IMG/VR virus record: IMGVR_UViG_3300045988_105798
Location: 1-27,077 of that record
Source of the DNA: a virus
Length of the DNA stretch: 27,077 bases
Strand: one strand, 5' to 3'
The notes beneath the pieces are model-generated. The model had not been told where the DNA came from. It made no database searches and saw nothing but the letters and a program-made list of their open reading frames with translations. Numbering within the stretch: the first letter of the stretch is position 1; every line of letters starts with the position of its first letter. This document shows, piece after piece, positions 1 through 27,077 of the stretch. Both the position numbers and the translations under genes were made by a program.

Positions 1-55
1 ATAGATGCTTCAAAAATTACATCTGGGGTAATTGATATTGAACGTCTACCCAAAG
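1..55. repeat. Exact 55-nt terminal overlap with 27023-27077 (circular closure of the contig)
   Basis: Both copies read atagatgcttcaaaaattacatctggggtaattgatattgaacgtctacccaaag. The overlap lies inside, and in frame with, the tail fibre ORF. Confidence 0.95.
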
Positions 56-1821
56 GAGCGTTAGAGAGATTAGTTATTGTTGCTAATCAATCAGAACGAT
101 ACGCATTAACTGCTGATGATGTTCAGGAAGGAGATACTGTAAAACAAGAAGATACAGGTGTACTGTATTTTGTTGTTGATATTGATAACCTAGCTAATGA
201 AAACGGCTACTCTATTTATACAGCGGGATCAGCAACTAGTGTACCTTGGTCAGGAGTGACAGGTAAACCTGATTTAGTTAACTCAGTTAAGTTAGTACTG
301 CCAAGTTCTATATTCACTAATTCTGGCAGTATACTTACAGGAAATGTAGAATTAGGATCATCTTTAAGTCCACAAACTGCTAATACAGTGTGAGCAGCTC
401 CAAGTGGCACATCTGGGGTACCAACATTTAGGAAATTAACTTTCCTAGATATGAATATAGTAGCGTCAGATGAATTTAACTATATACCACAGACATTTAA
501 AGGAGGAAGGCTAGTAATTAATCATAAAAACTCTGCTGGGGAGCAAAATACTAACAATACTATAACAGAATACCAATTTAAGGATGGGGCCAGTAATCTT
601 ACATACATAACAGCAAAAGGTTTTAAAACTTCGGAAAATCAGGAGCACAGGGTATTATGTTCAGATGGGTCTTCTAAATTCTTGTATGGACCATCAACTC
701 CTGGAACAGCAGGACAAGTATTAGTTTCAAATGGGACATCAGCTCCTGAATGGGGACAAGTACCTATAACTAGTATAGGAGGGCCTACTGGTGACACTAC
801 AACTTCTGATGATGTACCATATGGAATTACTCCATATATTGGAGAGTATCGTTCTGATAAATTAGCGTTTATAAAAAGTACTGATTTATATGGAGAAATA
901 AGTAAAAACAACGGAGAATTGTGAACTGAAGATCCTCAGGGGAGTAGTAGACTTATAAATTTATTTACTTCACAAGATAATAAGTATGGTCTACAATTAA
1001 TAGATACAGAAGATGTTAGCGTAACTACTCAATATAGACTTACTATAACTAATAGTGATAGATATTGTACCATTGATTGGATATATATATATATGTCTAC
1101 TAATGGTTCTGCTTATAATTGCTTCATTGAAGCATATAATCCTAGTTCTGAATCTTGAGATATAATATCTCAGGATGCTAGTTTACAGGGATGATCTGGA
1201 CCTAATTTTAGAGCTTTGACGTCCTCTCTATGTTATAACTATTCACCTAGAACATCCTCTCAATATTCAAAGCTAAGGTTTACATTTTCAACTAAAAGTA
1301 TTAGTGAAAAACATAGTGGGCAATTGACAGTCTATAGAATTTCTGGATATGGTATTTATGGCTGAATAATGCCTAACAATATGTCTCAAGTCGGTCAACT
1401 TTATTCTTGAGATAATGCTCAAAATGCTTCTTTTCCAGGAAGTGTATCGGCTATAAAATTTATCAGTGATGGAGGTACTAGTACTAATGTAACGATGGGA
1501 GATGGATCTCTAAAAGATCTTAAAACTAAACAATTAGTTGTAAACGGTACTATAAATAACTTTTATTCATCAGATAGTGTTGAGGTTAGACTTTATGCTC
1601 CTACTTCAGGTGGTACTAGTGGGCAGATTCTTGTATCTAATGGTAGTAATACTCCTAAATGAGCATCCTTAGATAGTTTAGGTATTCAGCCTGCTGGAAA
1701 CTATATTGAAGCTGGAGCTGGAACCCAACCTCAAATAAATACGATTACTGTTCTAACTCAATCAGAATATGATGGTTTATCAACAAAAGATTCTAATACT
1801 CAATATTTAATAGTTGAATAA
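1..1821 (+). CDS. Tail fibre protein, 3' portion. The gene starts at 25340 and continues across the circular junction.
   Basis: Frame 1 is open from base 1 to TAA 1819-1821 when TGA is read as Trp (in-frame TGA at 391, 922, 1156, 1192, 1363, 1408, 1660). It is in phase with the 25340 ORF through the 55-nt overlap. It has fibre-like motifs (IDASKITSGVIDIERLP). An internal repeat pair reads GQVLVSNGTSAPEW(TGG)GQV and GQILVSNGSNTPKW(TGA)ASL. Confidence 0.8.
1081..1094 (+). repeat. (AT)7 dinucleotide microsatellite inside the tail fibre ORF
   Basis: The sequence atatatatatatat encodes ..W-I-Y-I-Y-M... Confidence 0.9.
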
Positions 1822-1822
1822 T

Positions 1823-1936
1823 ATGAACGTAAAGACCGATTTAAAGGGATTTTATGTAGGTAACAGAAAGGGTATTGCCATTTATGTTGGCAGTACCCAA
1901 ATCTGGCCTGCAACGACTACAACTTCTAATAAATAG
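1823..1936 (+). CDS. Hypothetical small protein (37 aa)
   Basis: ATG lies 1 nt after the fibre stop and the ORF ends at TAG 1934-1936 (MNVKTDLKGFYVGNRKGIAIYVGSTQIWPATTTTSNK). Support is tight packing only. Confidence 0.35.
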   Translation: MNVKTDLKGFYVGNRKGIAIYVGSTQIWPATTTTSNK

Positions 1937-1944
1937 TCCTAATT

Positions 1945-2172
1945 ATGATATTACTAAAGAATTCCAAAAATACGCAGACTTTCTATATTGCCAAAAAGAC
2001 TGGAATAGAAAAAGGTCAATTACCCATTGGTAGTTATTCAAAATTAGAAGTAGATGCTTTATTTCAACCAAAAGGAGACTATATAACTGCTAATGAGTAT
2101 AATAACAAGATCAACGAGCTAGAAGCAACAATACAAGAGTTACAGAGTAAGTTAGCAGATTCTGATAAATAA
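1945..2172 (+). CDS. Small fibre-associated coiled-coil protein (75 aa)
   Basis: Intact ORF. Its C-terminal heptad-like segment is NKINELEATIQELQSKLADSDK. The YSKLEVDALFQPKGDY segment resembles repeats in the main fibre. Confidence 0.5.
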   Translation: MILLKNSKNTQTFYIAKKTGIEKGQLPIGSYSKLEVDALFQPKGDYITANEYNNKINELEATIQELQSKLADSDK

Positions 2173-2241
2173 TGTCAGTATTTTTATTATAACTTAAAGT
2201 GAGTAAAAAACTTGACATTAAAGGAGACATTTGTCTCCTTT
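2171..2241 (+). promoter_or_regulatory. Conserved intergenic element, copy 1 (AATGTCA box, T-rich spacer, GTGAGTAAAAAACTTGACA, hairpin)
   Basis: The core motif is at 2199-2217. AATGTCA (2171-2177) is inverted relative to TGACATT (2213-2219). A hairpin, AAAGGAGA/TCTCCTTT, is at 2220-2241. The element lies 101 nt upstream of the 2318 start. Confidence 0.6.
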
Positions 2242-2317
2242 AATTTTATTACTGTATCTAAAGTATTTATATTTTAGAAAAAAGATATGTAAAATTAATG
2301 TAAAACTATTGCAAATT

Positions 2318-2710
2318 ATGTATTACACTCTATTAATTCAGAATACTGTGAGTAAAGAAGTATATACATATAATTTGGAGAATTTAAATTATGACGAAAA
2401 TATTTATTATAAGTTCAATATTGTGTTGGATGATAATACACCTGACGGAGAATACCAATATCTGTTATTTGAGAATCCAAATCAAATTGAAGTTGTAGTA
2501 AACTATAATAACGTCTATGATAGCAAGTTATATGGAGATACTAAAATATTAGTAACGTTTACTAATACACTTACTAATGGAACTCAGATATTAATTGCTG
2601 GTAAGCCTATTATGTGACTATCTAGTGGATTAATAAGAATAGGAGGCTATAAATCTAATAATTATCAATATAATAAACAAAACAAATACCAAGTATATGA
2701 CAGAAAATAA
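2318..2710 (+). CDS. Hypothetical protein (130 aa)
   Basis: Start taken at ATG 2318 (MYYTLLIQ...). In-frame TGA at 2615-2617. The ORF ends at TAA 2708-2710. Confidence 0.55.
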
Positions 2711-3779
2711 GAAAAGTTTGAAGATGTCGGCCATAGATCCATATATTGTAAGTAACATAGTAGAGCCTACAGAAAGTAAGAAAAGAGGATCAGATATGAT
2801 AATGTGAGGCGATAATAATTGCTATCCTGTTTACTTATGGGATCTATATTTAAACTGTGCAACATTACAGTCAATTATCAACGGAACTGCCGATTTTATC
2901 GTTGGAGACGATGTTATTTGTAATAAAGATGGATTTAACGTAGTTGTTAATAAGAAAGGTGAAACTATAGTAGACCTCTTTAGAAAGATAGCAATAGATA
3001 AGATGATTTTTGGAGGATATGCTGTTCAAGTAATTAGAAATATGATTGGAGAAGTCAGTGAGATTTATCACTTAGACTTTATGAAGATCCGTTCTAATGA
3101 AAAGAATACAGTTCTTTATTATGCAGATGATTGGGAGGCTTGGTCAGTTAAGGCTTTAACTTATCCTAAATATGAGATAAACGATAGTGCTCCTTCTTCT
3201 GTAGTTTATAATAAAGGCTATGTAACAAGAAGTGTATATCCAATTCCAGTTTATGGAGCTGCTCTATTAAGTTGCGAAACTGAGAAGTGTATTAATCAAT
3301 TCCATTTAAATAATCTTAATAATGGATTTATGAGTAATCTTATTATCAACTTTAATAATGGAACTCCTACAGATGAAGCACAAGAAGAGATTGAACGTAC
3401 TATTAACGAGAAGTTCTCTGGATACCAAAATACTGGACGTATTCTTATTTCTTATAATGATTCAGATGTAAATAAGACTACTGTTGAAAGACTTGATTCT
3501 GATGATTTCGATGAACGATATGAATCATTAGCAACTAGAACAAGAGAGCAAATATTCTGCGCTTTCAGAGCTAATCCAAATCTTTTCGGAATTAACTCAG
3601 ATTCTACAGGATTTAATATGCAAGAATTTGAATCAGCATTTAGACTTTATAATAGAACTATGGTTAAGCCAATACAGAAAGAGATGTGCGATACTTTTGA
3701 TAAGATCTTTAATATGAAGAACTCTATAACAATAGTTCCATTTACATTAGATACAGCAGACTCTAAAACAATCGAATAA
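2697..3779 (+). CDS. Portal protein (360 aa)
   Basis: ATG 2697 is in the same frame as track ORF 3003-3779 through TGA 2805-2807 (..DMIMW GDNNCYPVYLWDLYLNCATLQSIINGTADFIVG..). The overall pattern resembles phage portals, but this was judged by eye only. Confidence 0.65.
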
Positions 3780-3781
3780 TT

Positions 3782-5532: not shown

Positions 5533-5694
5533 ATGAAGTATTGGGTAAAGTATTTAATCGCAGTTGTGATAATTATTGCAGTTTTGGTATTAGTAAAAGT
5601 AATTCCTTTCTGGATTACTATGGTATTACTTGCTTTAGCAGTAGGTAGCCATTTATTTTACAGATATCTAACACTTAAAGACATTATAAAATAA
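5533..5694 (+). CDS. Holin candidate (53 aa, two hydrophobic helices)
   Basis: Sequence is MKYWVKYLIAVVIIIAVLVLVKVIPFWITMVLLALAVGSHLFYRYLTLKDIIK. Its stop overlaps the endolysin start (TAATG). Confidence 0.55.
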   Translation: MKYWVKYLIAVVIIIAVLVLVKVIPFWITMVLLALAVGSHLFYRYLTLKDIIK

Positions 5695-6143
5695 TGAAGT
5701 ATTTTACAGTAGAGGAGTTAACTGAATCATCTACAGCAATTAAGGAAAATATAGACAACACTCCAAGTAAGGAGATCACTGAACACCTGATTGAGTTAAT
5801 AGAGGAACTCTTAGATCCTATTAGAGAAAAATGGGCAGAGTATTGTAATATTAATAAACTTGGAAATCCAGCAATAAGTGTAAGTTCAGGTTATAGATGC
5901 AAAGAGCTTAATAAAGCTGTAAATGGTTCAGTTACATCTGCACATATGACTGGTTATGCTGCAGACCTTCAAAATGTCTCTGGAAGTAGAGAAGAATTTT
6001 ATCAATTCCTATTAAACTTTTTGAAGGATAGAAATTTCGATGAATGTTTTAGTGAATATAATAAGTACACTAAGTGAATACACATAGCATTATATAATAG
6101 TAAAAAATTACAAAGAAAAAAAGTAGGTAAATTATATGTATAG
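5694..6143 (+). CDS. Peptidase M15 (LAS-type zinc D-Ala-D-Ala/L-Ala-D-Glu peptidase) endolysin
   Basis: It has the SGYRCKELNKAVNGSVTSAHMTGYAAD motif (H-x6-D zinc motif). The ORF continues through TGA 6075-6077 into W-I-H-I-A and ends at TAG 6141-6143. Confidence 0.8.
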
Positions 6144-6276: not shown

Positions 6277-6289
6277 GATAAAATAAAGT

Positions 6290-6320
6290 AAGGGAGCCTT
6301 TTGAGCTCCCTTTTCTTTTT
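6290..6320. terminator. Bidirectional intrinsic terminator between convergent arms
   Basis: The stem AAGGGAGC (6290-6297) pairs with GCTCCCTT (6305-6312) and is followed by ttttcttttt. An A-run lies upstream. Confidence 0.7.
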
Positions 6321-6419
6321 AATAGATAATCTTACCAGTTTGCAAATCTACTAAGAATTTACTATTTTCGGGAATTACATAAACGTAATTTACTCCATTT
6401 AAGCATAATTTATATCATA

Positions 6420-6554: not shown

Positions 6555-6556
6555 AA

Positions 6557-6784: not shown

Positions 6785-8503
6785 CTAATTTTTAAAGACA
6801 TACTTTTTACCTATAATAGTATATCCATAAGATCTGTTTCCATTCACTGATTTTTTAGTTACCTTAACTTCATAATATTTTGTAATATCAGTAGCTTTAG
6901 CATTAGTTTTATTAACTAAATCATAAGCTTTTTGTAGTATCTTTTTAATATCAGTATTAGAATACCACATACCTAAAGTTATATTTTGATTAAGTTTATT
7001 TGCTACTTTATTATCTACAGATTTATCTGAAGTTTTAATAAGTTCATCTTTTATTTTAGTAATACAGTATTTTAGAGTGGCCATTTTATTGAATCCAAGT
7101 TTAGTAATAGCATCCATTAACCAAGGGTATTTAATAAGAGCATCATCTAATTTTGGGGTGTTTACCTTATATAAGGTTTCATATTCCTCTCTTACTTCTT
7201 TAATTATATCTTTAAATGCTTTTGTTTTAGTATTTAGATCTATTTTTATAGAATTATCATATTGTTCTACCACTTTATTAAATCCTTTATTAATATATTC
7301 CTTAGAAAGATTAGCTCTAGCAGAATACAGTCCTCTAGATACTTTAAAATTAAATAAATCAATTTTAGCCATATTAGGGTCAAATTCAAATACATCATCC
7401 CAATTTAATTTAATGTATGCATCAGAAGTAAATTCTCTAAGTTTCTTTTTAGCTATCTCTGGAAGTTTATTGTATGCTTCTACAGCAATTTTAGTTTCTT
7501 CAATATTCTGGATATTAAGCTTTTTAAATTCTTCATAAGATATATCAGCATATCTTGTTGTAGAATAAATGTGAGTTATCCAATTAATATATTTACTATT
7601 TCTAATTCTACCAGCAATCTGCTGTATAGAAGTTGATATATCAAGTAATGTATTAGCTTTACTTGGATCAGATATAATTATTATCCTTCCATTTTCATCA
7701 TAAATATCTGAACCTTCAAATACAGTTGAAGTTAATAAGTTGATCTTTTTAGGTTCATCTAAGACTGTTGAATTAGGAATTGACAGTTTAGTTTTATTGT
7801 TTTTGGAATATATAACTCTGGTATTATTAGATGTTAATTTGGCTTTCTTAATAAGGTTCTTTATAAAGTCTACTGAATTAACGAATATGTAGGCGTTACC
7901 TTCAACCTGTCCGTTTAAAAATCCATTTATAAGTTTAATAGTAGAAGCTTCTACATTATCACATTTAACAGTTTGCACTTTTACATCTATAACATCATCC
8001 CATTCCTGCTTTACTAATTCTAAATCTTTTAATTCATCTAATACAAACTCTTCCTCTAAAGGTGTTGCTGTCATAAATGTAAAATTACCAAATAATTTAT
8101 AATATTTAAGCACTGATTGAATAGCAGAGCTTCTAAAGCTATACTGATTAAAGAGAATATGATATTCATCAATTAAAATGCTAAACTCTTTAGGATTAAT
8201 TGCAGAAATAACTTTATAAAGAGAATCATAGGTAACAATGATTTTAGGGCATTTAACACTATCTACATAATCTTTAATCTCTTTAATAGTAACACCAGCA
8301 TAAACTCCAAATATCTTCTCAGTACGTCTTTCATTTGGATATTGTTGAAGTTTATTTTCAACTAAGCTAGTAAATGGAACACAAATAACATAAGGCTTAT
8401 TGCATTCAATTGCCATTGAAGTTCCTCCACATCCAACTTTTCCTTTATCAAATAAGCAGTTAGTTGGCAACTCATTAATAATTTCATTTAAATATGTTTT
8501 CAT
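6785..8503 (-). CDS. Superfamily-2 DExH helicase (572 aa)
   Basis: Start taken at MKTYLNEII (8503). It has a P-loop-like GKVGCGGTS, ILIDEYH (DExH), MTATP (motif III) and QQIAGRIRN (motif VI). It has no in-frame TGA, and all 5 Trp are TGG. Confidence 0.8.
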   Translation of the reverse strand: MKTYLNEIINELPTNCLFDKGKVGCGGTSMAIECNKPYVICVPFTSLVENKLQQYPNERRTEKIFGVYAGVTIKEIKDYVDSVKCPKIIVTYDSLYKVISAINPKEFSILIDEYHILFNQYSFRSSAIQSVLKYYKLFGNFTFMTATPLEEEFVLDELKDLELVKQEWDDVIDVKVQTVKCDNVEASTIKLINGFLNGQVEGNAYIFVNSVDFIKNLIKKAKLTSNNTRVIYSKNNKTKLSIPNSTVLDEPKKINLLTSTVFEGSDIYDENGRIIIISDPSKANTLLDISTSIQQIAGRIRNSKYINWITHIYSTTRYADISYEEFKKLNIQNIEETKIAVEAYNKLPEIAKKKLREFTSDAYIKLNWDDVFEFDPNMAKIDLFNFKVSRGLYSARANLSKEYINKGFNKVVEQYDNSIKIDLNTKTKAFKDIIKEVREEYETLYKVNTPKLDDALIKYPWLMDAITKLGFNKMATLKYCITKIKDELIKTSDKSVDNKVANKLNQNITLGMWYSNTDIKKILQKAYDLVNKTNAKATDITKYYEVKVTKKSVNGNRSYGYTIIGKKYVFKN

Positions 8504-8721: not shown

Positions 8722-8753
8722 CAAATATACAACATATTTTTTCAATTTCCAAA
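8722..8753 (-). promoter_or_regulatory. Bacteroidota-type promoter (minus strand): TTTG-N20-TATATTTG
   Basis: CAAATATA at 8722-8729 and CAAA at 8750-8753 on the + strand read as TTTG-N20-TATATTTG on the minus strand. Confidence 0.6.
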
Positions 8754-8800: not shown

Positions 8801-8831
8801 CAAATATAATAATAATTTTTTAATCTGCAAA
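8801..8831 (-). promoter_or_regulatory. Bacteroidota-type promoter (minus strand): TTTG-N19-TATATTTG
   Basis: CAAATATA lies at 8801-8808 and CAAA at 8828-8831 on the + strand. Confidence 0.55.
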
Positions 8832-8832: not shown

Positions 8833-8864
8833 TTTGCATATTAAATATAAAATACTTATATTTG
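8833..8864 (+). promoter_or_regulatory. Bacteroidota-type promoter (+ strand): TTTG-N20-TATATTTG
   Basis: TTTG is at 8833-8836 and TATATTTG at 8857-8864, 46 nt upstream of ATG 8910. Its -33 element is back-to-back with the minus-strand -33 element inside the palindrome TGCAAA-A-TTTGCA. Confidence 0.6.
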
Positions 8865-8909
8865 CAGTACAATAATAAAATAAGTATTAACCTATTAAAT
8901 ATTAAAATT

Positions 8910-9725
8910 ATGAAAACAGTAAATAATTGATTTAGAAATAATCCAGATTGAAAAAGTAAAATATTTATAGAACGCTATTTAAAGACAACTGGATGTAATG
9001 TTATTTGGAATTCTAATCAATATTCTAAATTCGATGGATATATTGATTATAATAATAAAAGAATTCCTCTCGAACTAAAAGTGAGAGATTTATATTCATT
9101 CTCTTATAAAGAAACACTTATTGATTACAAAAAATATATAAATCTAGTAAATGATAAGGGTATATTAATAGTTATATTTAAAGATTGCTTTATAATATTT
9201 AAAGATGTAAAATCTGCTTTTAATAATAGTCATTTTATATACTGTAGATCTACAACATCATTTGATGGATATTATGGTAACTTTCAAAAGTGTTATTTAA
9301 ATATTGCTAAAGGTAAAAAAGTTAATATAGATACAACTTTTTGTTATACTGGAGAAATATGAAAGAAAATTAAAGGCTATGATTATGAAGTTAGTACAAA
9401 CGGTAATATTAGAAATAAGTTTGGCAAATTATTAAAACCGCATTATATAAAAGGTTATTATAATGTATGCTTATATTCTAATAAAGTTAGAAAAGAATTT
9501 ATGGTACATAGATTAGTAGCTGATACATTTATTGGGATAAATTCTGAACTAGAAGTAAATCATATTAACGAAAATAAACTTGATAATAGAATTGAGAATT
9601 TAGATGGATGCTTTATAAGGCAATATCCAGGAGCAGGATATGCTGCAACTACTATTAAAGATGCCTGTCGAGGAAGATTTGGGCATAACAAAGCTGTAGG
9701 ATATATGTGAGCTTATGAACAATAA
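8910..9725 (+). CDS. Fusion of a PD-(D/E)xK-like nuclease domain and a NUMOD4/HNH homing-endonuclease domain (271 aa under code 4)
   Basis: A single frame with TGA at 8928, 8946, 9360 and 9708. The N-terminal part has FDGYIDYNNKRIPLELK (a D...ExK pattern). The junction reads GEI-W(TGA)-KKIKGYDYEVSTNGNIRN. It continues HRLVADTF...EVNHINENKLDNRIENL and ends GYMW(TGA)AYEQ. Confidence 0.65.
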
Positions 9726-10017
9726 TGAAATTTTAGAAAAGTATTATCCATTTATTTTGGAATTAAAGCATAAGTTTGGAGCTAATGATGATTGTACTCA
9801 AATGATATGTATAGACATACTGGAAACACCTCATTCTAAACTCCAAAGTCTTCATAATAAGAATGAATTAAAATATTGAATTACCAGAGTATTTAAAAAC
9901 TACTGGTTTTCTAAAAATAGTAGATATTACTATCAATATAAGAAATATTATGAGATAGTTAAGGAACCTATTGAACAGCAAATTATCGATGAAGAAAACT
10001 ATGCAGAAGAAGATTAA
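9715..10017 (+). CDS. Sigma-70-family region-2-like protein (100 aa)
   Basis: ELKYW(TGA)ITRVFKNYWFSKNSRYYY resembles ECF sigma region 2 (WL..IA.N...d..R). It has an acidic C-terminal linker and ends at TAA 10015-10017. Confidence 0.45.
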
Positions 10018-16186: not shown

Positions 16187-19100
16187 ATGAGAAAGAATAT
16201 TAAATTATTTATTGCAAATAAAGAGGTTGACTGTAGTGAGGGAATTAGTCTTCCTATAACATATACTGTTGAGGATTTCCAAAACCCCACTATAGTCAAG
16301 AACTCGTTTAGTAAAACGATTTCTATACCTGGCACAAAAAACAATAATAAGATTTTTGGAGAGATTTATAAATTAGATAGATTTCTCCATATAAAAGAAG
16401 GTGATTTCTCTGGAGTATATTTTGATCCTTCAAAAAGAGTTGACTTTGGAATCTATAATAATGGATATTTAGTTGAATCAGGATATATGCAGTTAAATAG
16501 CATCTCTATAAAGCAAGCAGTTATTACTTATAATATTACTTTATATGGAGGATTGGGAGATTTCTTTTATGGACTTAAATATAAAGAAGATGGCACTATT
16601 AGAACTCTAGCTGATTTACAATACTTTGTAACTGATAAAGATGGTAATGTACTTCCTACCGATACTGAAATGAATTTCTACATTAATAAAGATTTTGTAA
16701 ATACTTGTTTTAATTGGAGTAAAGTAAATGACGGAAGTCAAATTTATGATTTTTTAACATTTATTCCTGCATATAACGGTTTATATGAAAACTTTGATAA
16801 TGAAACTTGTTTAATAAATACTAATGGAGATAATTTATTTCCTACTAGTAAGACCGATTCAGGAACTACATACACACCTTATAATGGATATGGATTAGCT
16901 AAATTAAATAGAGCATATACAGAATGGGAGATGAGAGATCTTAGAAGTTATATGCAAAGGCCAGCTTTAAAATTAAGTAAGTTAATAGAAACTATATGTA
17001 GAAAAGAGAATTCTGGATATGATGTTATAATGGATCAAGATTTCTTTAATTATTCAAATCCATATTGAAATAAAGCGTTTGTTGCATTACCTTTATTAGG
17101 ATCTACTGAAGATGAAGAATCAGATAATATTACAGAGAATGCTAAACTTACTAAATATAATGATTTGTTTTGGTGTGGATTAAAACCTGGAGGAACAACT
17201 ACTTCAGTAAACTGAGGAAGATTTAGTGTTACAGGGAGTGATGTAATAGTTCCTGGTGAAGGACAAGTAATTGATTTATCTGCAACTCCAGCTAATACTC
17301 TTGTTAATATTAATGTTGATTTTCAGTTATTCTATAATGCAAATGTTTCTGCAGGTAATGATTTATACCTATCCTATGTGTTAAATGGAAAATCTGGAAA
17401 TGCAGAATATACGAATCATCCTTATAGAACTTCTGTAACTGCACAAATATTACTATATGATGCTGATGATACATCTTCTCCTTCTAGACCTATAGCATAT
17501 TCTCCATTATATAATTTCACTAATTCTATTCAAGGTCAAAATCCAGCAGGACCTAATTCTTGGTTTAATTATTATCCTTTAACTGATGCACCTGTTGAAA
17601 CTATTCTTGGGCATTTTGTAAAAGATAGTGGAAATAGGTATTATTTCAAAAGTGATAATAATACTAATACTTTCAGATTTACTGTAAAAGATATGCCTAA
17701 AGTTAATAAGATTTTAGTAAATATACAAATTGCAAGAAGAACTGAAAATTTATATAACCAAGATGCTGTATGGCAGTTAAATAATATGCATCCAAATGAT
17801 GTTACTGCTAATAGAGTTGCTGGATGGTCAGAATTTTTATATGATGAAGATCAATATACGCTAAAAGCTTCTTGGCCTTCAGCAGTTACTTCTGATGCTT
17901 TAATTACTAAGCAGAAATTATTAAAGACAGAACAATCTCCTGCTGATTACTTATTAAGTTATGCAAAACTATTTGGATTGTATTTTACAAAAGATATTGA
18001 TAGTAAAACAATTAGAATATATACTAGAAATAACTTTTTTAAGAATGTAATTTCAGATTGGAGTAAAAGAATTGATTATTCTAAAGACTTTAATGTAAAT
18101 CCAATATTATTTGATAAAAAGTGATATACTATGTCATTAGAAACTCCAGAAACGTATTATGCTAAGAAGTATGATAGACAGTATGATATAGACTATGGTC
18201 AGCAAAGATTAAATACTGGATACAATTTTAATAGTGATAATACTGATTTATATTCTGGAAATATATTTCAAAATGTGGTATCTGCTAGAGATGCAGACAA
18301 GTATTTTAGAAATTTCTTTAATTCTGGAAATACTTATGTACCTGCATTTATGAATGATAATATTACATATAGTTTATTTAATAGAACTTCTACAGAAGTA
18401 AAAACTAGTGATCAGGATTTATATGGAGCTAATTTTATAGATCAAGGAAAGACTACAGAATGGTGAGATGTTCCTGGAAATGATATATTTGCAAAAACTT
18501 GTTTTTACACATTAGACAATAATGAACAGAGTCTTGAGGAAATAAAGAGTGCTTTATTGTTTTATAATGATACAGTTAGTATGAATGATATAGCTGGTAA
18601 TCCAATTAATTATTGAATTACAGATGATGTTACTGAAATGTCGGTTCTTAATGATGGTGAACCTTGTTACATTTATACTACTAGTGAAAATAATTCTGCA
18701 GGATCAAAAATTGCAATTAAAAGAACTACATTACCACAATTTATAAGATATACTATTTCAAGTAACTTCATATCTTCATCTTGAGATTTTGGAGTTCCAA
18801 GAGAAATATATATTGATAAAGTTAGTTATTTGGAACAATCTACTTTATATAGTAGATTCTGGAGTAAATTTTATAATGATCAATTTGATGTAAATACTAA
18901 AAAAGTCACCTGCTTTGTAAGATTAGATGATTTAGATGTTAAATATGATTTACTTAGACAATTCTATTATTTTGAAGATTCATACTGGGTACTTAATAAG
19001 ATAGATGCTTATGATATTAATTCAGATTCTACTGTTAGATGTGAATTTATTAAAGTTCAAGATATTAATAGTTATTTAGCTGGACTTCAAAATTCAGGTG

Positions 19101-19630
19101 AGTATATATCATTTGACGATTCAGATCCAATAGTAGATTATCAAGCTGGAACTAAAAAGATTACAGTTACTTCTAATATTCCTTGGGAATTAGGATGATA
19201 TAGTCCAAATGAAATTGTAAGCATTACACCTGAATCTGGACAACCTGGAGAAACAGAATTGACAGTTACATATAATGAGAATACTACATATAATCAAAGG
19301 AGTTTCTATTTTAGTCTTTATAAACAAGGAGGCGTAGATGGTTCTCAATGTATGTTTACTCAAACTCCAGACCCAAATAAAGCTGTTCTTATTACAGGAA
19401 AGCTTCAAACTTCTACTGGAGGTATTCCTTCTGGTGTTAATCAGATTCTAACTGAAAATGATAATTTCTTAAATGACACTTATATGAGAGATGATGGAAG
19501 TTATAGAATATATGCTCAAAATGGAGTTCAATTTTTATTTAGAGTATCTGACGGACCAACAGGAACAGTTAAATATACAGAGAATTTAACACTAACAGAA
19601 GATACTGTTAAAAACGTAACTATAAACTAA
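16187..19630 (+). CDS. Very large tail tip/baseplate protein (1,147 aa)
   Basis: Five track ORFs (16187, 17378, 18131, 18830, 19259) share one frame. They are joined through TGA at 17066, 17213, 18122, 18464, 18614, 18782 and 19196. The C-terminal Ig/BACON-like module reads SITPESGQPGETELTVTYNENTTYNQRSFYF. Confidence 0.7.
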
Positions 19631-19631: not shown

Positions 19632-21965
19632 ATGGCTGAAGAAATTAAAAAAGTAATTAGTGTAGATACTAAAACCAGTTCAAAGTCGATCAAGCAGCTA
19701 CGAGAAGAAGTAGCTGGCTTGACGGCTGAACTTGAAGATCTTGAGATTGGTAGTACTGACTATACTAAAAAGCTTGAAGAACTTGTTAATGTTCAAAATA
19801 AGTTAGGTGTTGCTACAGAATCTATGCAAGGTAAAACTGTAAATGCAGTTAAGGCGTTTGACAGTATCAATCAAGTAGCAGGAGGTTTAGCTGGAGGAGT
19901 TTCAGCTGTTAGTGCAGTATTCACTTTATTTGGAAAAGATACAGAGAATCTTCAAAAAACTATGGTTAAATTGCAAGCAGCAATTGCTATAGTTCAGGGA
20001 ATTGGAGGATTAAAAGGTTTAGGTGAAGGTATTCTTAATGGAGTAAAATCATTTAAAGCCTTATCTGTAGCAATGGGTGGTGCTACGGCTGCAACTGGAG
20101 GATTATCTGTAGCAATGGGTGTGCTACGGTCTGCAATTATATCTACAGGAATTGGAGCTTTAGTTGTAGCTCTTGGTATGTTAATAGATTTTGCAATTAA
20201 AGCAGCATCAGGAATTGATGATTTAAAAATTAGTATTTCTGGTTTAAAAGATATAACTGATCAATGAGGAACAAGTTACGCCAGAGCTAATACTGAAATT
20301 GCAGGATTGGAGAGACAAAGAGAGAGAGAGTTAGCTGCTGGTAAAAAAAGTGAAATACAAATTTGGAAAGATTATGCTGAAGAATTAGGAGATTTAGGTG
20401 CTGAATTATTTCATCATTTTGGCAGTGTAACTAAAGCATATTCTGACTCATTTACTAATATACTTAAAAGTAATGAATACTTCAAAAAAGAATTTAAGAA
20501 ATCTGGATATGAAACTTGGGAAAATTATTCCAAAGCAATACGATGAGGATTAAAGACTAGTTCTAATGAAGTTGATTTCTTTTTAAGTAAGTTAACTGAT
20601 GCTCAAAAAGCGGCTTATGAGGAAGCTTCTGGTATTTATAATACATATTTTGAGAAGCTAAATGATTTAATGCAAAAATCTGCTGCAGCTTATGAAAAAG
20701 TTAAGTTAATGGAGATTGCTGCAGAACGTAAGCAGAGAGAAGAAGCTAAAGCCCAGTATCTAAAGAAGATAGAAGAAAGAAAGAAACATAATCAAGATCT
20801 GCTTAAAGTTATTAACGATTTCTATGAAGAAAATAGGAAACTTCTTTTAGATGATGAAGCAAGAGAACTTGATGAATTAAATAGAAACTACCAGAATCAA
20901 TTAGAGGCACTTAAAGAAGCCTATAATCTCAAATTACTAACAGTTAAAGAATATAATGAGAGATTAAAGCAGTTAAATGATGCATATAATAAAGAGTGAC
21001 TAGATAATAATAATGAACGTTATAGAGAAGACTTAGAAAATAGATTATCTGCATTACAAGAAATGCAAGATAGGGAATCTCAATTATTTGCAAATAAAGA
21101 GGCTGCATTATCTGCAGGTAAATCTGGAAGTTATGAAACTAGAGTTCAACAATTTGGTTCAACGGATTTTTATCAATCTGGAGAAGATGTTCAAAGACAA
21201 TATCAAGATACATTAGCTTATAATGAACAGTTATATAATCTCACTAAAGATAGAATTACAAGAGAGAATGAATTGATGTCTCAACAGCAAGCTATTTTAG
21301 ATGAGCAATATAACAATAAGCTGATAACTGAACAAGAATATGCCAATCAATCTCAAGCAATTAAATTACAGCAAGAAGCTAATGATATAGCTTTATCAGA
21401 AGCAGCTAATGCAAGAGAAGAAGCAGATCTTCAAGCATTTAAAGATAGACAAGCTAAAAAGCAACAGGCTATTCAAGCTACTATGAATGTAGCTTCTTCT
21501 TTAAGTGGAGCTTTAGCTAATGTATTTAAACAAGAAGCTAGTGATGATAAAAAATCAGAGAAGCAAAGAGAGAAATCCTTTAAAGTTTATAAAGCATTAG
21601 CTACTACTCAAGCTATTATTGATACTATCAGTTCTGCCCAAGGTGCATATAAAGCTATGGTGGGTATTCCATTTGTAGGACCTATTCTTGCTTCTATTGC
21701 AGCTGCTACTGCTGTTATAGCTGGTATTGCTAATGTAAAAGCTATCCAAAATGAACAATTACCTTCATCTGGAGGTTCTGGAAGTGATGCAGGAACTACT
21801 GCTCCTGCTGCTTTAAATACTGCTCCTGTAGAATATACTCGAAACTTACTTGGCAATAAAGAGACTGATGAATTGAATCAACCAGTTAAATGTTATGTAG
21901 TTGAGAGTGATATTACTACTGCTCAAACTAAAGTTGCAGTTACAGAATCAAATGCAAGTTTCTAA
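19632..21965 (+). CDS. Tape-measure-like protein (777 aa)
   Basis: Four same-frame track ORFs are joined through TGA at 20265, 20544 and 20997. It has long coiled-coil stretches plus Gly/Ala-rich hydrophobic segments (GGLAGGVSAVSAVFTLFG; VGIPFVGPILASIAAATAVIAGIANV). Confidence 0.65.
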
Positions 21966-22028: not shown

Positions 22029-22102
22029 AATGTCAAAATTTTATTTATCTTAGATACCTGTGTGAGTAAAAACTTGACAGTTATATTCTATATAAATATA
22101 AT
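22029..22102 (+). promoter_or_regulatory. Conserved intergenic element, copy 3, containing a perfect TTGACA-N17-TATAAT
   Basis: AATGTCAA is at 22029-22036 and GTGAGTAAAAACTTGACA at 22062-22079. TTGACA (22074-22079), a 17-nt spacer and TATAAT (22097-22102) follow. The element lies 81 nt upstream of ATG 22160. Confidence 0.6.
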
Positions 22103-22159: not shown

Positions 22160-22753
22160 ATGGGAAATATGTATAACGAACTGCCACTATACCAAGCAGT
22201 AATAACTGACGATTTTGATGGCATAGAATATGTAGCTTTAACATCAAAGCCAGCTACCCAAGTAAACTGGGTTGCATTTAATAACTCTTTGAAATTCTCT
22301 ATGGATGAAGATCAACATATTGTAACTTCTTGTTTAATGGTATGTGATATGCCAATTTTTAGACGAGATGACAATTTGGGAGAATATTATATCCAATATA
22401 ATAAAGAGACTTTAAGAGCAATGGCTGAGAAGATGATGAGGGATAAAAGAACTGATGCTGTTAATATAGAGCATTTAGAAGATTCTTCGATTCCTGGAAT
22501 TGTACTACAAGAACTTTACATTAAAGATGAGAAACGAGGAATTTCTCCCATAGAATTCAAAGATGTGCCTGACGGTTCTTTATTTGTAACTTACAAAATA
22601 AATAATCCTATTATTTGGGATGCTATTAAAGCTGGAAAGTTCAAAGGCTTCTCTATTGAAGGCTTATTTACTTTAGAACGTAAGGATGATGAATATACAG
22701 AACTTAAAGAGATACAAAGAATGTTGAAGAAGATAAAACGAATTAAAAAGTAA
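22160..22753 (+). CDS. Prohead protease candidate (XkdF-like) (197 aa)
   Basis: It sits ahead of the scaffold and capsid genes. The pattern ..NIEHLEDS...FVTYKINNPIIWDAIKAGKFKGFSIEG resembles XkdF-type phage proteases. It has no TGA. Confidence 0.5.
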   Translation: MGNMYNELPLYQAVITDDFDGIEYVALTSKPATQVNWVAFNNSLKFSMDEDQHIVTSCLMVCDMPIFRRDDNLGEYYIQYNKETLRAMAEKMMRDKRTDAVNIEHLEDSSIPGIVLQELYIKDEKRGISPIEFKDVPDGSLFVTYKINNPIIWDAIKAGKFKGFSIEGLFTLERKDDEYTELKEIQRMLKKIKRIKK

Positions 22754-22756
22754 ACT

Positions 22757-23338
22757 ATGAGCAAATTCACTAAAATCAAATTAGAGCTTGCCAAAATGTT
22801 GGCAAAATTCAGTGATCTGAAAACTTCAAAGGGAGTCTTAACTTGGGATTCTGACGAAGATCTTAAAGCTGGAATGGATGTTTATGTAATGGATGAGAAT
22901 GGCGAATACGCTCCTGCTGCTGATGGTGATTATGTTACCGAAGATGGTCAAACTATCGTAGTTAAGGAAGGTCGCGTTGAATCGATTACTGATCCCAAAG
23001 CTGAAGTAGATCCAGAAGAAGGAATGAGCACTGTTGAGGTAGCTGCTGAGGAAGAAGTTGCAGATCCTATGGTTCAAACTGATGGTGTTAAAGAAAGTGA
23101 AACTGATGCCATTGATGCAATTCATAGAGAGATTAATGAGCTTTATGACATTGTAGACAAACTTACAAAGAAGGTTGCCGAGCTTGAAGCAAAAGGAACT
23201 GAAACAAAAGAGACTGTTGAGAAAATGAGCAAAATGAGTGCTGCTTTCTCTGCAGAAGAAGAGATTGAAACAAAGCGTACTACTCCTACAAGTGGCAATG
23301 CAGAAATAGATAGAAAGCTTAAAAACTTTATTGGTTAA
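22757..23338 (+). CDS. Scaffolding protein candidate (193 aa)
   Basis: It is acidic with a coiled-coil segment (INELYDIVDKLTKKVAELEAKG) and lies immediately upstream of the capsid gene. It has no TGA. Confidence 0.55.
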   Translation: MSKFTKIKLELAKMLAKFSDLKTSKGVLTWDSDEDLKAGMDVYVMDENGEYAPAADGDYVTEDGQTIVVKEGRVESITDPKAEVDPEEGMSTVEVAAEEEVADPMVQTDGVKESETDAIDAIHREINELYDIVDKLTKKVAELEAKGTETKETVEKMSKMSAAFSAEEEIETKRTTPTSGNAEIDRKLKNFIG

Positions 23339-23359
23339 TAATTTAAAAATTAATAATTT

Positions 23360-24262
23360 ATGAATCCTGTAATGACTTCTTTGACTGCTTATGTTGAGCA
23401 GCGTAGATTACCTCTTATTAAAGAGGCTGTATTAAAAGCTAAGAGTGCTAGTTTATTTAACTTACAGACTGATATTAAAACTTCAGCTGCTCTTAACTTA
23501 CTTTCAACTGATGTTGAATTTGGAGATGGTCTGACTTGTGGATGGGATGAGGCTGGAACGCAGACTCTTTCACAACGAGTTCTTACGACTGGAAATATCA
23601 AGATTAATATGGCTTATTGCGACAAAGCTATGCTTAAATATTGGACTCAGTATCAGGTTCGCGTTGCTGCTGGTCAGAAAACGCTTCCTTTCGAAGAGGA
23701 CTTTATTAGTGGTGTAGTTGAGAATGTTAAAGCCTCTATTGAAACCGCTATCTGGCAAGGTGATACTACTTCTCAGACTAATAACCTGAAGTACTTTGAT
23801 GGTCTGTTAAAGATCTTAAAAACTGCTACTGGTACTGTTGATGTAAAGATTACTGGTACTTCTGCTTACGATGACATTATGGCTGTTTATAACGCTATTC
23901 CTGAGAAAGTACTTGATGGTGCTTCTATCTTAGTAGGCGCTGATACCTTCCGTAAATTCGTCCAGGAGTTAGTTGCTAAGAACTACTACCATTATAGTGG
24001 TGAGAATCTTAACGGTGAGATTATGCTTCCTGGTTCGCAGGTTAAAGTAATCGCTGTTAATGGTCTTAACGGAACTGACCAGATCGTTGCTGGTCAGCTT
24101 GACAAGAACTTCTTCTATGGCTGCGATATGATGAATGACGAAGAGAAATTCGAAATGTGGTATTCGCAGGATTTCAGAGAATTTAGATTAGCTATTGAAT
24201 TTAACGCTGGTGTACAAGTGGCGTTCCCAGATGAGATCGTACTTGGTGCAAAAGCTGAATAA
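23360..24262 (+). CDS. Major capsid protein (300 aa)
   Basis: It follows the protease and scaffold genes and has a typical size. Its codon usage is visibly less AT-rich. All 4 Trp are TGG. Confidence 0.75.
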   Translation: MNPVMTSLTAYVEQRRLPLIKEAVLKAKSASLFNLQTDIKTSAALNLLSTDVEFGDGLTCGWDEAGTQTLSQRVLTTGNIKINMAYCDKAMLKYWTQYQVRVAAGQKTLPFEEDFISGVVENVKASIETAIWQGDTTSQTNNLKYFDGLLKILKTATGTVDVKITGTSAYDDIMAVYNAIPEKVLDGASILVGADTFRKFVQELVAKNYYHYSGENLNGEIMLPGSQVKVIAVNGLNGTDQIVAGQLDKNFFYGCDMMNDEEKFEMWYSQDFREFRLAIEFNAGVQVAFPDEIVLGAKAE

Positions 24263-24317: not shown

Positions 24318-24686
24318 ATGAAATATACTGGAATGATTTATCTTATTCAAAATAACATTACACAAAAAGTGTATGTCGGACAGACAACAAGAGACATTGA
24401 AACTAGATTTAAGGAGCATTGTAGAAGATCAAGTAACTGTAAAAAACTATCGAATAGTATAAATAAATATGGTAAAAATAATTTTTCTATTATTGAGTCT
24501 ATGATTCAGGCTAAAGCAAAAATTATTTATCAATATAATTTAGATGGTAGTTTTGTCAGATGCTGACCTTCTGCAAGGTCTGCAGCTAGACATTATGGCT
24601 CAAGTAAGAGACATCATATTACAGATGTATGCTCTGGTAGACGTAAATCTGCCTATGGGTTTTTGTGGAGTTTTGCAGAGGAATAA
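24318..24686 (+). CDS. Compact GIY-YIG homing endonuclease (122 aa)
   Basis: It reads GMIYLIQNNITQKVYVGQTTRDIETRFKEH (GIY...YVG...R..E). It has TGA at 24564-24566 and the tail GFLW(TGG)SFAEE. It is inserted between the capsid and major tail genes. Confidence 0.7.
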
Positions 24687-24745
24687 GAAAGACATATAAA
24701 GGTTTTATGTGGAAATACGAATAATTAATAAAATTTAATAAATAT

Positions 24746-25264
24746 ATGGCTTGCTTAATAACGCTTAATGGAATTACACTTGATTGCCAGCCTTCGTTAG
24801 GTGGTATCAAAAGAGTTTGGATTACTCAATATTCAGATGTAAAATCTGTAGTTGTAGGTGATGACAATATGATTGAAAGTATCACTTTAGAGGGTGAAGC
24901 TCAATGGTATGAGTATCAGTTCCGTAAGGCTACTGGTTCTTTAACCTCAACTTTGAATGTTGACGAATCCGCAGGAGTTAACTATGTAAGTAATGAGTTA
25001 GCTCTTGTATTTACAAAGATGGAAACTGCTAAGAGAATTGAAATTGCAGCTTTATCGATCGGTCAGCTTGCAGTTGTTGTTGAGGATAGTAATGGTCATT
25101 ACTGGTTCCTTGGTAAAGATGATTATGTAAGCGCTTCTGCAGGTACTGGTATTACTGGTACAGCAAAAGGGGATCAGAATGCTTATACTCTGACTCTCTC
25201 TACTGATTCGGATTCTTATCCTTATGAGTTGTCAGCAGAAGCTATTGCTGCAATAGTTGGATAA
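24746..25264 (+). CDS. Major tail protein candidate (172 aa)
   Basis: The size and the pattern GGIKRVWITQYSDV...WYEYQFRKATGSLTS...NGHYWFLGKDD..TGTAKGDQNAYTLTL are typical of siphovirus tail tube proteins. It has no TGA. Confidence 0.55.
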   Translation: MACLITLNGITLDCQPSLGGIKRVWITQYSDVKSVVVGDDNMIESITLEGEAQWYEYQFRKATGSLTSTLNVDESAGVNYVSNELALVFTKMETAKRIEIAALSIGQLAVVVEDSNGHYWFLGKDDYVSASAGTGITGTAKGDQNAYTLTLSTDSDSYPYELSAEAIAAIVG

Positions 25265-25270
25265 TCAGAT

Positions 25271-25310
25271 TAAGAGCGGGTAATTAATTTTACTTGCTCT
25301 TATTTTGTTT
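25271..25310 (+). terminator. Intrinsic terminator after the major tail protein gene
   Basis: TAAGAGCGGGTAA pairs with TTACTTGCTCTTA and is followed by ttttgttt. Confidence 0.6.
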
Positions 25311-25339
25311 ATAGACATTAATAATAAAAATTATATAAT

Positions 25340-27077
25340 ATGGAAAATCTATTACCCTATTTAAATGTACTTGAGGCAGACACTATTACAAGAGATAATG
25401 TAACCAAAGCCTTAGTAATAGATAAAGATGATAATATAGCTCTTTTAAATGGAGAAGATTTAGGAACTAATAATTATCAAGATCTGCAAAATAAGCCCTC
25501 TTTAAATGGTAAGACTTTAGAAGCCTCAACTAATATAGTTCCAGCAATACAGGTTCAAGCAATACCTACTAAATTGACTATTACTCCATCTTTAGGCAAT
25601 CAAACTGGACAAGCAGTTGAACTTCCTGGATATGATACAAGTACTAATGCTTCTGGTATTTTAACATCTCAAGTATTTGGTATTCTTAATGATAAGTATA
25701 CTAAAGAAGAAATAGACAATATTAACAGTGCGATTAATACAGCTATTTCTAAAAAACAAGATAAATTAACAGCAGGAGCTAATATACGAATTGTAGATAA
25801 CGTTATATCTGCCTTTAATAATCATTTATTCTTACATTTAGATGAAAATGATACAGAACATCAAGCTTATGTATATTCTTTTATTAAGTCTAATTTAGAG
25901 TTCTATTTATTTGCTGAGATCACTTACGAAGGCAAAGTAGTAGTTCTTCCTTTAGTTGCCATTGAAAACAACGAATCGTTATATTTAAAAGGAATGTATC
26001 TTAAAGATGATTCTACAATCGTTGAGGTATCTGCAGTTTTAGTAGCTAATGGTAACATAAGTGTTAATACTTCTGAAATATCAATATCTGATTATAACCA
26101 GTTGACAAATAAGCCACAGATTAATTCAGTAGAATTGTCTGGAAATAAAACCCTTGCTGATCTTGGTATTCAAGCTGCAGGTAATTATGCTTTAAAGAGT
26201 GACATTCCAACTAAAGTAAGTGAATTACAAAATGACTCTCAATTTGTAACTGAAACAGCATTAACAGACGGATTAGCTCCTAAAGCAGATAAGACTTATG
26301 TTGATGAACAATTAGCTCTTAAAGCTGATTCTACTACAGTTGAATCTTTATCTGGAGAAGTAGCTACTAATAGTACAGATATTAGTACTTTAAAGAGTAC
26401 AGTTGCAGAGAATGGTGAAAAGATTGATTCTCTTGATAAAGAGATGGCTACCAAACAGGATACTCTTGTTAGTGGAGAATCAATTAGAACAATTAACAAT
26501 CTTTCTTTATTAGGAGATGGTAATATTAATGTAGGTGATGTTCCTTCTATTACGGTAGAAAATGAACAAATACCAAATGAGACAGATTTTAATAGAGTTG
26601 CAGAAGCTGCAGCAAATGATAGAGCAGTTTTAATTAGAATTAAAACTGCTGAAATGACGTTACCCTCTAATTATTGACAGTATTCCTCTTCAGAATCTCA
26701 GAGAGGCTTTGTTGCTTATGCAACATATTTATCAGGAACTAATAACATAACTCTGATTGCATATATTCTAGAAAATCAACCAGTTATGGTAGGAACTGAG
26801 ATTGAAGAATTACAAGAAGAGTTAGTTTCTGGAACTAATATTAAAACTATTAATGGTGAAAGTATCCTAGGATCAGGTAATATAGACACTCCAGATAGTA
26901 AGGTTACTAGTGCTGCAAATCACTACACTCCTGTTGGAGGGAGTGCTACATCTGGAACTATTATAAATTCTATTACTAAGGATGAGAAAGGACATATTGT
27001 AGATATAGGGGTTGCTAATGGTATAGATGCTTCAAAAATTACATCTGGGGTAATTGATATTGAACGTCTACCCAAAG
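25340..27077 (+). CDS. Tail fibre protein, 5' portion (continues at base 56 of the window because 27023-27077 duplicates 1-55)
   Basis: ATG 25340. An in-frame TGA lies at 26675-26677 and the frame stays open to the window end. It has fibre repeats (YQDLQNKPSLNGKTL / YNQLTNKPQINSVELSGNKTL; GESIRTINNLSLLGDGNIN / GTNIKTINGESILGSGNID). The full gene is about 3,504 nt. Confidence 0.8.

Follow-up and report, generated by a model that had tools for sequence, protein, structure and literature searches.

Evidence that TGA specifies tryptophan in a compact human-gut phage in which no tRNA was found

Introduction

Read with the standard genetic code, the genes of the virus record IMGVR_UViG_3300045988_105798 (IMG/VR; 27,077 nucleotides, analysed in full and referred to here as the window) fall into same-frame pieces, and the codon at the junctions is TGA. 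The locus thus raises the question of what TGA means in this phage and of how it comes to be decoded. A preliminary description, made from the letters of the window, had proposed that TGA is reassigned from stop to tryptophan (code 4) throughout the genome. The reading that we favour, at a probability of roughly three in four, joins four elements: a phage that uses TGA as Trp, a Bacteroidota host that keeps the standard code, an uneven use of TGA among the phage genes, and decoding by something other than a phage tRNA.

A complete phage genome interrupted by TGA only

The first 55 nt of the window are identical to the last 55, which indicates a circular assembly of 27,022 unique bp. The same genome was recovered as 27,149-bp k127 circles, with a 127-base overlap, from human gut metagenomes ERR209471 and ERR321484. 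The window is the complete genome of an uncultivated human-gut tailed phage. Its GC content is 30%, code-4 gene models cover 92.7% of its length and nearly all genes lie on the + strand, the single large minus-strand gene being found at 6785-8503. Pfam and PHROG searches with the code-4 translations identified a portal, a large terminase (TerL), a prohead protease and a capsid-family protein, together with a Peptidase_M15_3 endolysin, a NUMOD4 + HNH endonuclease and a GIY-YIG homing endonuclease. Pfam families Terminase_6N, Terminase_6C, Phage_portal and Peptidase_S78_2 were all matched, Phage_capsid weakly so, and the PHROG matches include portal, TerL and the capsid family. The genome is therefore that of a member of the Caudoviricetes with an HK97-type head module, portal, TerL, tape measure and long fibre. 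No integrase was seen in it. Comparison of 25 kb with GenBank phages by megablast gave no match, nor did tblastn with the capsid protein; a TerL search returned only relatives below 30% identity. These searches yielded no cultured relative and no host.

Under code 4, 50 in-frame TGA codons are distributed over 20 of 29 gene segments, corresponding to 19 of 28 genes; the initial estimate had been about 48 in about 19 genes. The counts then given for individual genes were all reproduced: three each in terL and the tape-measure gene, seven in the gene for a 1,147-aa tail protein, four in that for a 726-aa tail protein, eight (1 + 7) in the fibre gene and six in the gene at 4875-5531. In agreement with the preliminary description, the models end only in TAA (20) or TAG (8), never in TGA. 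Neither TAA nor TAG occurs in frame across 8,458 codons. The 50 TGA and 61 TGG codons together make up 111 of these codons (1.3%), a normal Trp content, whereas TGG alone would yield 0.7%. The summed length of + strand stop-to-stop open reading frames (ORFs) of at least 100 aa rises from 6,083 aa with the standard bacterial code (code 11) to 8,147 aa with code 4, and releasing TAG as a sense codon adds almost no ORF length. Under code 11, the longest piece of each gene keeps 61% of the coding residues and leaves 39% outside. TGA occurs at a frequency of 5.9 per 1,000 codons in frame versus 32.9 off-frame. The base following TGA (+4) shows no leaky-context enrichment (G 21, A 16, T 7, C 6). Annotation of the contig must use code 4, the default code losing genes such as the one at 4875-5531; one public collection already lists the contig's genes at their full code-4 lengths. 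The qualification "genome-wide" in the preliminary description thus holds for termination, as no gene stops at TGA, but not for use, as a defined set of genes avoids the codon (see below).

If the TGAs were true stops, the window would represent either a decayed phage with fragmented genes or one that depends on occasional read-through at a few sites. That the genes do fall into pieces under code 11 speaks for this possibility. It is made extremely improbable, however, by the finding that 50 of 50 interruptions are TGA and none TAA or TAG, by the continuation of frame and protein similarity past every TGA in more than 40 relatives, by the alternation of TGA and TGG at the same sites and by the recurrence of an identical genome in several human samples. 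Seven TGAs in one 1,147-aa tail protein are, moreover, beyond what leaky read-through would sustain.

The amino acid at TGA

Four independent lines of comparative evidence lead us to assign TGA to Trp as a sense codon, leaving termination to TAA and TAG. The first is the behaviour of terL, whose sole three Trp positions switch between TGA and TGG across 14 closely related genomes; with Trp at TGA, the protein contains the peptide YIGVDWATGSGNDY. The second comes from codon alignments of all genes common to the window and to 13 close relatives returned by a TerL scan of IMG/VR. The codons opposite the window's TGAs are TGA (206), TGG (109), TAT (11) and TTT (4), glycine codons (GGN) occupy 0 of 339 aligned codon pairs, and TAA or TAG never occurs in frame in any of the 13. 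The third line uses distant standard-code relatives, gathered from a capsid scan and a GTDB genome scan and aligned after masking Trp codons as X, so that the alignment is free of bias from them. The residues facing TGA in these proteins are Y (28%), W (19%), L (11%), F (5%) and I (5%), with Gly in 0 of 199 cases and no Cys; individual sites are W in 9 of 9, 6 of 9, 3 of 4 and 2 of 2 standard-code relatives. Lastly, the Pfam NUMOD4 profile scores 41.7 bits with W at TGA versus 31.4 with G, 32.5 with C and 35.2 with R (a margin of 6-10 bits), Peptidase_M15_3 scores 62.2 with W versus 58.2 with G and 59.2 with C (3-4 bits), and in Terminase_6C G falls below W.

The same data bear on the alternative that TGA encodes glycine (code 25), as it does in phages of Absconditabacteria and Gracilibacteria. 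Such an assignment would suit the low GC content and a walled host, and would make a suppressor tRNA unnecessary. Against it stand the lack of GGN in all 339 pairs where TGG swaps in 109 times, the lack of Gly among the 199 residues of standard-code relatives, and the lower score of G than of W in NUMOD4, M15_3 and Terminase_6C alike; we give glycine almost no chance. Selenocysteine was rejected on account of the 50 sites swapping with TGG and of the lack of any Rfam match to a selenocysteine insertion sequence (SECIS) or to tRNA-Sec.

The motifs that had first suggested Trp were all recovered in the gene models. With w denoting Trp at TGA, the NUMOD4-type motif reads GEIwKKIKGY (TGA 9360) and the C-terminal G-[YF]-x-W tail occurs three times, as AYGYRwEYI (TGA 6262), AVGYMwAYEQ (TGA 9708) and AYGFLWSFAEE (TGG 24666). 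The paralogous repeat within the 3′ part of the fibre gene has TGG at 751 in one copy (SAPEWGQV) and TGA at 1660 in the other (NTPKwASL), TerL reads GVDwATG at 12102, and the endolysin reads KwIH at 6075. Opposite the TGAs, close relatives often have TGG, and standard-code relatives are enriched in W and aromatic residues and never have Gly.

A defined set of genes avoids TGA

The use of TGA was expressed as the fraction of Trp codons written TGA across distinct sequences of the clade. In the large minus-strand gene this share is 1 of 74 (1 TGA versus 73 TGG in 16 distinct relatives). It is equally low in the major capsid gene (0 of 133), the scaffold gene (0 of 21) and the structural gene at 24746-25264 (1 of 86), and rises to 4 of 41 in the protease gene and 12% in the portal gene. 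In the genes for tail proteins, fibre, tape measure, TerL, endolysin and a neighbouring membrane protein, 30-70% of Trp codons are TGA. Counted by site, at least one clade sequence has TGA at 3 of 15 Trp positions of the minus-strand, head and tube genes, as opposed to 62 of 78 elsewhere (Fisher p = 1.8e-5). Nowhere is the genome richer in AT than in the minus-strand gene, where 73 of 74 Trp codons are nonetheless TGG. Selection thus keeps TGA out of a defined gene set (the minus-strand gene; capsid, scaffold and tube). That the most abundant proteins do without TGA suggests a limiting or costly decoding of UGA.

Homologues of the minus-strand protein number more than 1,000 and are uncharacterised. 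Its AlphaFold2 model (predicted local distance difference test score, pLDDT, 83) led Foldseek to the superfamily 2 (SF2) helicase core, including the origin-binding protein of herpes simplex virus 1 (HSV-1). Neither a PDB sequence search nor NCBIfam gave a match, so that the predicted fold alone is informative here; from that fold, the protein is probably a replication initiator or helicase, and is called the helicase in what follows. Downstream of its gene lie two small minus-strand ORFs (44 and 51 codons; 6420-6712), both called by a public gene caller.

A contrasting situation is found at the lysis genes. The 218-aa protein encoded at 4875-5531 has TGA at six of its six Trp codons. In the endolysin, the one TGA (6075) sits two codons ahead of a C-terminal His, and reading it as Trp gives YTKWIHIALY. 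The site is TGA in seven of seven close relatives aligned there, and the SAHxxGxAxD motif and the C-terminal His motif are both intact. A product ending at 6075 would lack the C-terminal His, which therefore needs TGA read-through. The C-terminal His is a metal ligand in other M15 peptidases. By analogy, if it is the zinc ligand here as well, an active endolysin presumably requires read-through.

Relatives, origin of the recoding and a fibre common to large phages

The preliminary description considered a compact 27-kb example unusual. This is borne out by the named TGA-recoded clades of Borges et al., which are large, but not by IMG/VR, where more than 40 related contigs of 16-34 kb (most of them 26-33 kb) are recoded as well. 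Recoding extends to the contigs whose capsid identity is 56% or higher, except for L043; L043 and relatives at 38-55% are not recoded. Of the standard-code relatives, L043 (IMGVR_UViG_3300029905_000019; 30,128 bp, 28% GC), whose capsid is 67% identical, is the closest. In 16 homologous genes it has 0 TGA and 38 TGG codons, and its ORFs stop at TAA (22), TAG (3) and TGA (2). The recoding arose within a family whose deeper members, including Bacteroidota prophages, keep the standard code. According to the published route, low GC leads to the loss of TGA stops, after which TGA returns as a sense codon (Borges et al., bioRxiv 10.1101/2021.08.26.457843). The near-lack of TGA stops in L043 fits this route, which we infer to have been followed here.

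The C-terminal ~790 residues of the fibre (from residue 371) show 85-95% protein identity to fibres of large gut phages, and the 3′ part of the gene (1..1821) is 85-88% identical to theirs. These phages, represented by contigs of 85-168 kb (loci L147-L154), are TGA-recoded too; IMGVR_UViG_3300045988_171613, _173136 and _168178 are among the large genomes that have the common fibre. Such a common receptor-binding region suggests that both phage families infect the same host. A 148,631-bp IMG/VR contig (3300045988_175865), considered as a source of host flanks, proved to be a chimera with no host DNA: ~117 kb of a large recoded phage are joined to one turn of the small-phage genome, and the junction lies inside the common 2.3-kb fibre segment, where the assembler crossed between phages. 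The chimera suggests that both families were present in the same assembly. GenBank MT835470 (117 kb, portal 47% identical) uses the standard code and has no tRNA. In the large recoded phage L150, a portal-like gene (486-3855) seems to be interrupted by the insertion of a 291-codon ORF (1872-2747), which may be an intron or a homing-endonuclease insertion.

Search for the decoder

ARAGORN found zero tRNAs in the window, in loci L001-L013 and in all other related loci examined; with relaxed settings (low thresholds, introns allowed) it returned implausible calls with introns of hundreds of bases, which we discarded as noise. An Rfam search at E <= 1 gave 0 matches. No release factor or aminoacyl-tRNA synthetase domain was detected among 20 proteins scanned, and folding of the intergenic sequence revealed no tRNA-like fold, only hairpins and one repeated element. 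In the large phages, no suppressor tRNA was found in the ~39 kb of 3300045988_171613 and relatives that were inspected, about one third of that genome. The UGA decoder is thus not a phage tRNA. Published frequencies are low as well: a TGA suppressor tRNA was detected in only 35% of code-4 genomes in one survey (Borges et al., bioRxiv 10.1101/2021.08.26.457843) and in 15% of code-4 phages in another, where a human gut virus catalogue contained 46 code-4 viral operational taxonomic units (vOTUs) (Cook et al., PMC11210395). The decoding of the 65-85% of code-4 phages in which no suppressor tRNA was detected is left unexplained by these surveys.

Several sources of decoding can be envisaged. The host tRNA-Trp could read UGA while a phage factor blunts release factor 2 (RF2); the host could hold a UGA-reading tRNA-Trp variant; or the suppressor could come from a co-infecting recoded phage. 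Variants of tRNA-Trp with a 4-bp anticodon stem do read UGA, and Bacteroides oleiciplenus carries one (PMC13092985).

The host

The consensus for Bacteroidota sigma-A promoters consists of TTTG at -33 and TAnnTTTG at -7 (PMC7366714). The pattern TTTG-N19-21-TAnnTTTG occurs four times in the window versus 0.89 expected, and three of the four sites fall in a single 290-bp divergent intergenic region, where two of them face the helicase gene. This helicase-facing pair is kept in almost every relative whose locus spans the region. A scan of 6000-9200 for sigma-70-type promoters found sites no commoner than in shuffled sequence. No Shine-Dalgarno motif is recognisable before gene starts, two leaders having a bare AGGA tetramer; the leaders are rich in A at positions -12 to -14 and -3 and contain little G. 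An A-rich leader pattern without Shine-Dalgarno sites has been described for Bacteroidetes mRNAs (PMC7366714). Relatives of the capsid gene reside inside Bacteroidia, Mucilaginibacter and Ferruginibacter chromosomes, all of standard code, and a helicase homologue is found in a Hymenobacter chromosome. The presence of an endolysin implies a walled host. On the strength of the promoters, the absent Shine-Dalgarno motif, the A-rich leaders, the endolysin and the prophage relatives, the host is most likely a walled, standard-code gut member of the Bacteroidota.

A rival view is that the host itself uses code 4 (lacking RF2 and having a tRNA-Trp(UCA)), the phage simply sharing the host code as Mycoplasma and Spiroplasma phages do. 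It would account for the lack of a tRNA in the window and in every related locus examined, and agrees with about two thirds of the genes carrying TGA and none ending with it. The unrelated large-phage family with the same fibre, hence probably the same host, is also TGA-recoded, again with no tRNA in the 39 kb inspected, and new code-4 lineages keep turning up in mammalian guts (PMC13462651). Among more than 600,000 genomes, code 4 is confined to Mycoplasmatales, a few endosymbionts, two Eggerthellaceae genera and some Patescibacteriota, with none reported in Bacteroidota (PMC13462651; bioRxiv 10.64898/2026.05.24.727570). The Peptidase_M15_3 endolysin excludes the wall-less Mycoplasmatales. 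Code-4 Eggerthellaceae are known from equids, apes and elephants; being Actinomycetota, they should rely on Shine-Dalgarno sites. The promoters, the absence of such sites and the prophage relatives all point to Bacteroidota, a phylum without code-4 members among those genomes. Finally, TGG at 73 of 74 Trp codons in the AT-richest gene is hard to explain if TGA is freely readable. We therefore think a code-4 host unlikely.

Proposed course of infection and comparison with known systems

With a standard-code Bacteroidota host, infection could proceed as follows. Host polymerase would start at the two TAnnTTTG promoters, and host ribosomes would first make the TGA-free helicase. The genes containing TGA (terminase, tails, fibre, endolysin) would yield full-length products only once UGA is decoded as Trp, so that packaging, tail assembly and lysis would be tied to the code switch, in line with what Borges et al. 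proposed.

A number of observations weigh against this reading. The host is predicted from the indirect traits listed above rather than from a CRISPR-spacer or integration link of the recoded clade itself; whole-phage contigs of relatives were binned with metagenome-assembled genomes (MAGs) of Lachnospiraceae, Saccharimonas and others, although binning is unreliable either way. The genes just 3′ of the + strand host-type promoter (sigma-like, 10240-10569) contain TGA, in the window or in relatives, so that a rule by which early genes keep the standard code fits the helicase only. A possible 51-aa minus-strand ORF (6557-6712) contains an in-frame TGA and, if real, would break the pattern of a TGA-free early unit. 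For the capsid gene, plain translational selection could explain the avoidance of TGA, which would then have little bearing on timing. The absence of a leaky-context signal at the +4 base argues against unaided near-cognate read-through.

A more specific proposal, which we hold as a tentative one with the odds rather against it, is that TGA is read as Trp in a whole clade of compact (~27-31 kb) phages that has no tRNA of its own and infects a Bacteroidota host of standard code. This could be achieved by a non-tRNA phage factor, for instance a small TGA-free early protein that blunts RF2, or by decoding borrowed in trans from the large TGA-recoded phages; as these share the receptor-binding fibre, they would have the same host and be possible donors. 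The genome has fewer than ten consistently TGA-free small ORFs; besides the helicase gene, the ORFs at 1945-2172, 6420-6554 (-), 10591-10911 and 12598-13257 stay free of TGA. The one at 10591-10911 encodes a 106-aa protein that is Trp-free in the window and in all relatives, with two CxxC-like pairs and, at its C terminus, a very basic tail; this protein is a candidate for the code-switch factor.

Gut phages that read TGA as Trp on standard-code hosts, most of them without a detectable suppressor tRNA, are already established in the literature; to these the present phage adds a 27-kb TGA-recoded lineage, associated with Bacteroidota, in which no tRNA at all was found. The phage resembles Jade, Sapphire and Agate (Borges et al., bioRxiv 10.1101/2021.08.26.457843) in that TGA means Trp in genes for structure and lysis and that a replication gene, here a predicted one, keeps to the standard code, as well as in low GC, loss of TGA stops and predicted standard-code hosts. 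It differs from them in size (27 kb and a single obvious replication gene versus 127-210 kb), in that its major head genes are TGA-free too, and in that none of the tRNA, tryptophanyl-tRNA synthetase (TrpRS) and release factor 1 (RF1) carried by some Jade genomes was found in it. Garnet, Amethyst and Topaz from the same survey are closer in size (22-34 kb), with some Bacteroidota hosts and one recoded structural and lysis block, an example being a 24-kb Garnet prophage in Prevotella (Borges et al., bioRxiv 10.1101/2021.08.26.457843). They are mainly recoded from TAG to Gln, with some code-4 members in mixed clades (Table S1 of that survey; the comparison is by description only), and are set apart from the present phage, in which no integrase was seen. 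The crAss-like phages (Crassvirales) with TAG or TGA reassignment likewise come from the human gut, have ~30% GC and are recoded in a late region; their Bacteroidales hosts use the standard code, as we predict for the host here. They differ by unrelated gene content, a size of ~100 kb or larger, an RNA polymerase of their own and, usually, suppressor tRNAs, and recoding has been proven experimentally in them for TAG-to-Gln only (Cook et al. 2024, PMC11210395; Peters et al. 2022, PMC9523058). Mycoplasma and Spiroplasma phages likewise combine TGA as Trp with small AT-rich genomes and no suppressor tRNA. Their hosts are wall-less and call for no peptidoglycan hydrolase, unlike the present phage with its M15 endolysin, Bacteroidota-type promoters and TGA-avoiding genes.

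The clade offers a small, abundant and well-sampled case (more than 40 related contigs, ~28 genes in the present genome) that sets TGA-free against TGA-rich genes and combines host-type promoters on a TGA-free early gene with a lysis enzyme presumed to depend on read-through. If the proposal of a tRNA-less clade is true, this genome would be a minimal system in which to look for the missing code-switch mechanism. The common fibre further suggests that one host is the target of several recoded phage families.

Other genes and elements

The coordinates of the main features are given in Table 1.

Table 1. Features of the phage genome (window coordinates; TGA counts refer to in-frame codons).
Feature	Position	Strand	Remarks
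Whole genome	1..27077	+	circular; 50 in-frame TGA, zero TGA stops
Tail fibre, 3′ part	1..1821	+	7 TGA: 391, 922, 1156, 1192, 1363, 1408, 1660
Portal protein	2697..3779	+	1 TGA (2805); Y, W or F there in standard-code relatives
218-aa protein, N-terminal hydrophobic segment	4875..5531	+	PHROG 30125; immediately 5′ of endolysin
Peptidase_M15_3 endolysin	5694..6143	+	single TGA (6075); 62 bits; conserved in relatives
Terminator-like hairpin, bidirectional	6290..6312	.	between convergent + and - transcription units
Predicted SF2 helicase with C-terminal domain	6785..8503	-	0 TGA, 5 TGG in the window
Bacteroidota-type promoter, TTTG-N20-TATATTTG	8722..8753	-	faces helicase gene; conserved in relatives
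Bacteroidota-type promoter, TTTG-N19-TATATTTG	8801..8831	-	faces helicase gene; conserved in relatives
Bacteroidota-type promoter, TTTG-N20-TATATTTG	8833..8864	+	faces + strand genes
NUMOD4 + HNH homing endonuclease	8907..9725	+	4 TGA: 8928, 8949, 9360, 9708
ECF-type sigma-factor-like gene	9715..10246	+	overlapping frames 9715-10017 and 9989-10246; 1 TGA (9877)
Large terminase (terL)	11352..12596	+	only three Trp codons, all TGA: 11793, 11907, 12102
726-aa tail protein	14004..16184	+	4 TGA
1,147-aa tail protein	16187..19630	+	7 TGA
777-aa tape-measure-like protein	19632..21965	+	3 TGA
Repeated intergenic element GTGAGTAAAAANTTGACA	22062..22079 (+), 8560-8577 (+), 13434-13451 (+), 6733-6750 (-)		
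Head block: protease (Peptidase_S78_2), scaffold-like protein, major capsid	22160..24262	+	0 TGA in the window
GIY-YIG homing endonuclease	24318..24686	+	TGA 24564; C-terminal GFLW uses TGG 24666
172-aa conserved structural protein	24746..25264	+	TGA-free in the window
Tail fibre, 5′ part	25340..27076	+	runs on across the junction into 1..1821; 1 TGA (26675)

Three ORFs of the homing-endonuclease type are present in the genome (8907-9725, 24318-24686 and 6127-6276). The NUMOD4 + HNH gene is found in one of the 13 close relatives and is therefore a mobile insertion; the GIY-YIG gene sits between the capsid and tube genes; the ORF at 6127-6276 is a 49-codon remnant with the same terminal G-Y-x-W motif. 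The identification of the 172-aa protein as the tail tube is a guess from its position adjoining the capsid gene.

The two overlapping sigma-like ORFs jointly match TIGR02937 (positions 4-100 and 118-161) plus Sigma70_r4, and their +1 frame offset is kept in 22 of 24 relatives. Either this sigma-like factor is made in two pieces or a programmed frameshift joins the two frames.

A motif search for GTGAGTAAAAANTTGACA found four copies versus 0.18 expected by chance, and a fifth copy with one extra base lies near 2200 (+). The sequence forms the end of a conserved ~48-nt element whose copies occupy intergenic gaps at gene-block boundaries, three of them with a GC-rich hairpin on the 3′ side. The element may be a phage-specific, possibly late, promoter or another regulatory site, perhaps serving the phage sigma-like protein.

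Two conserved ORFs located 5′ of the tail genes (12598-13257 and 13083-13400) overlap by 175 nt in different frames, a layout that resembles the frameshift pairs of chaperone type.

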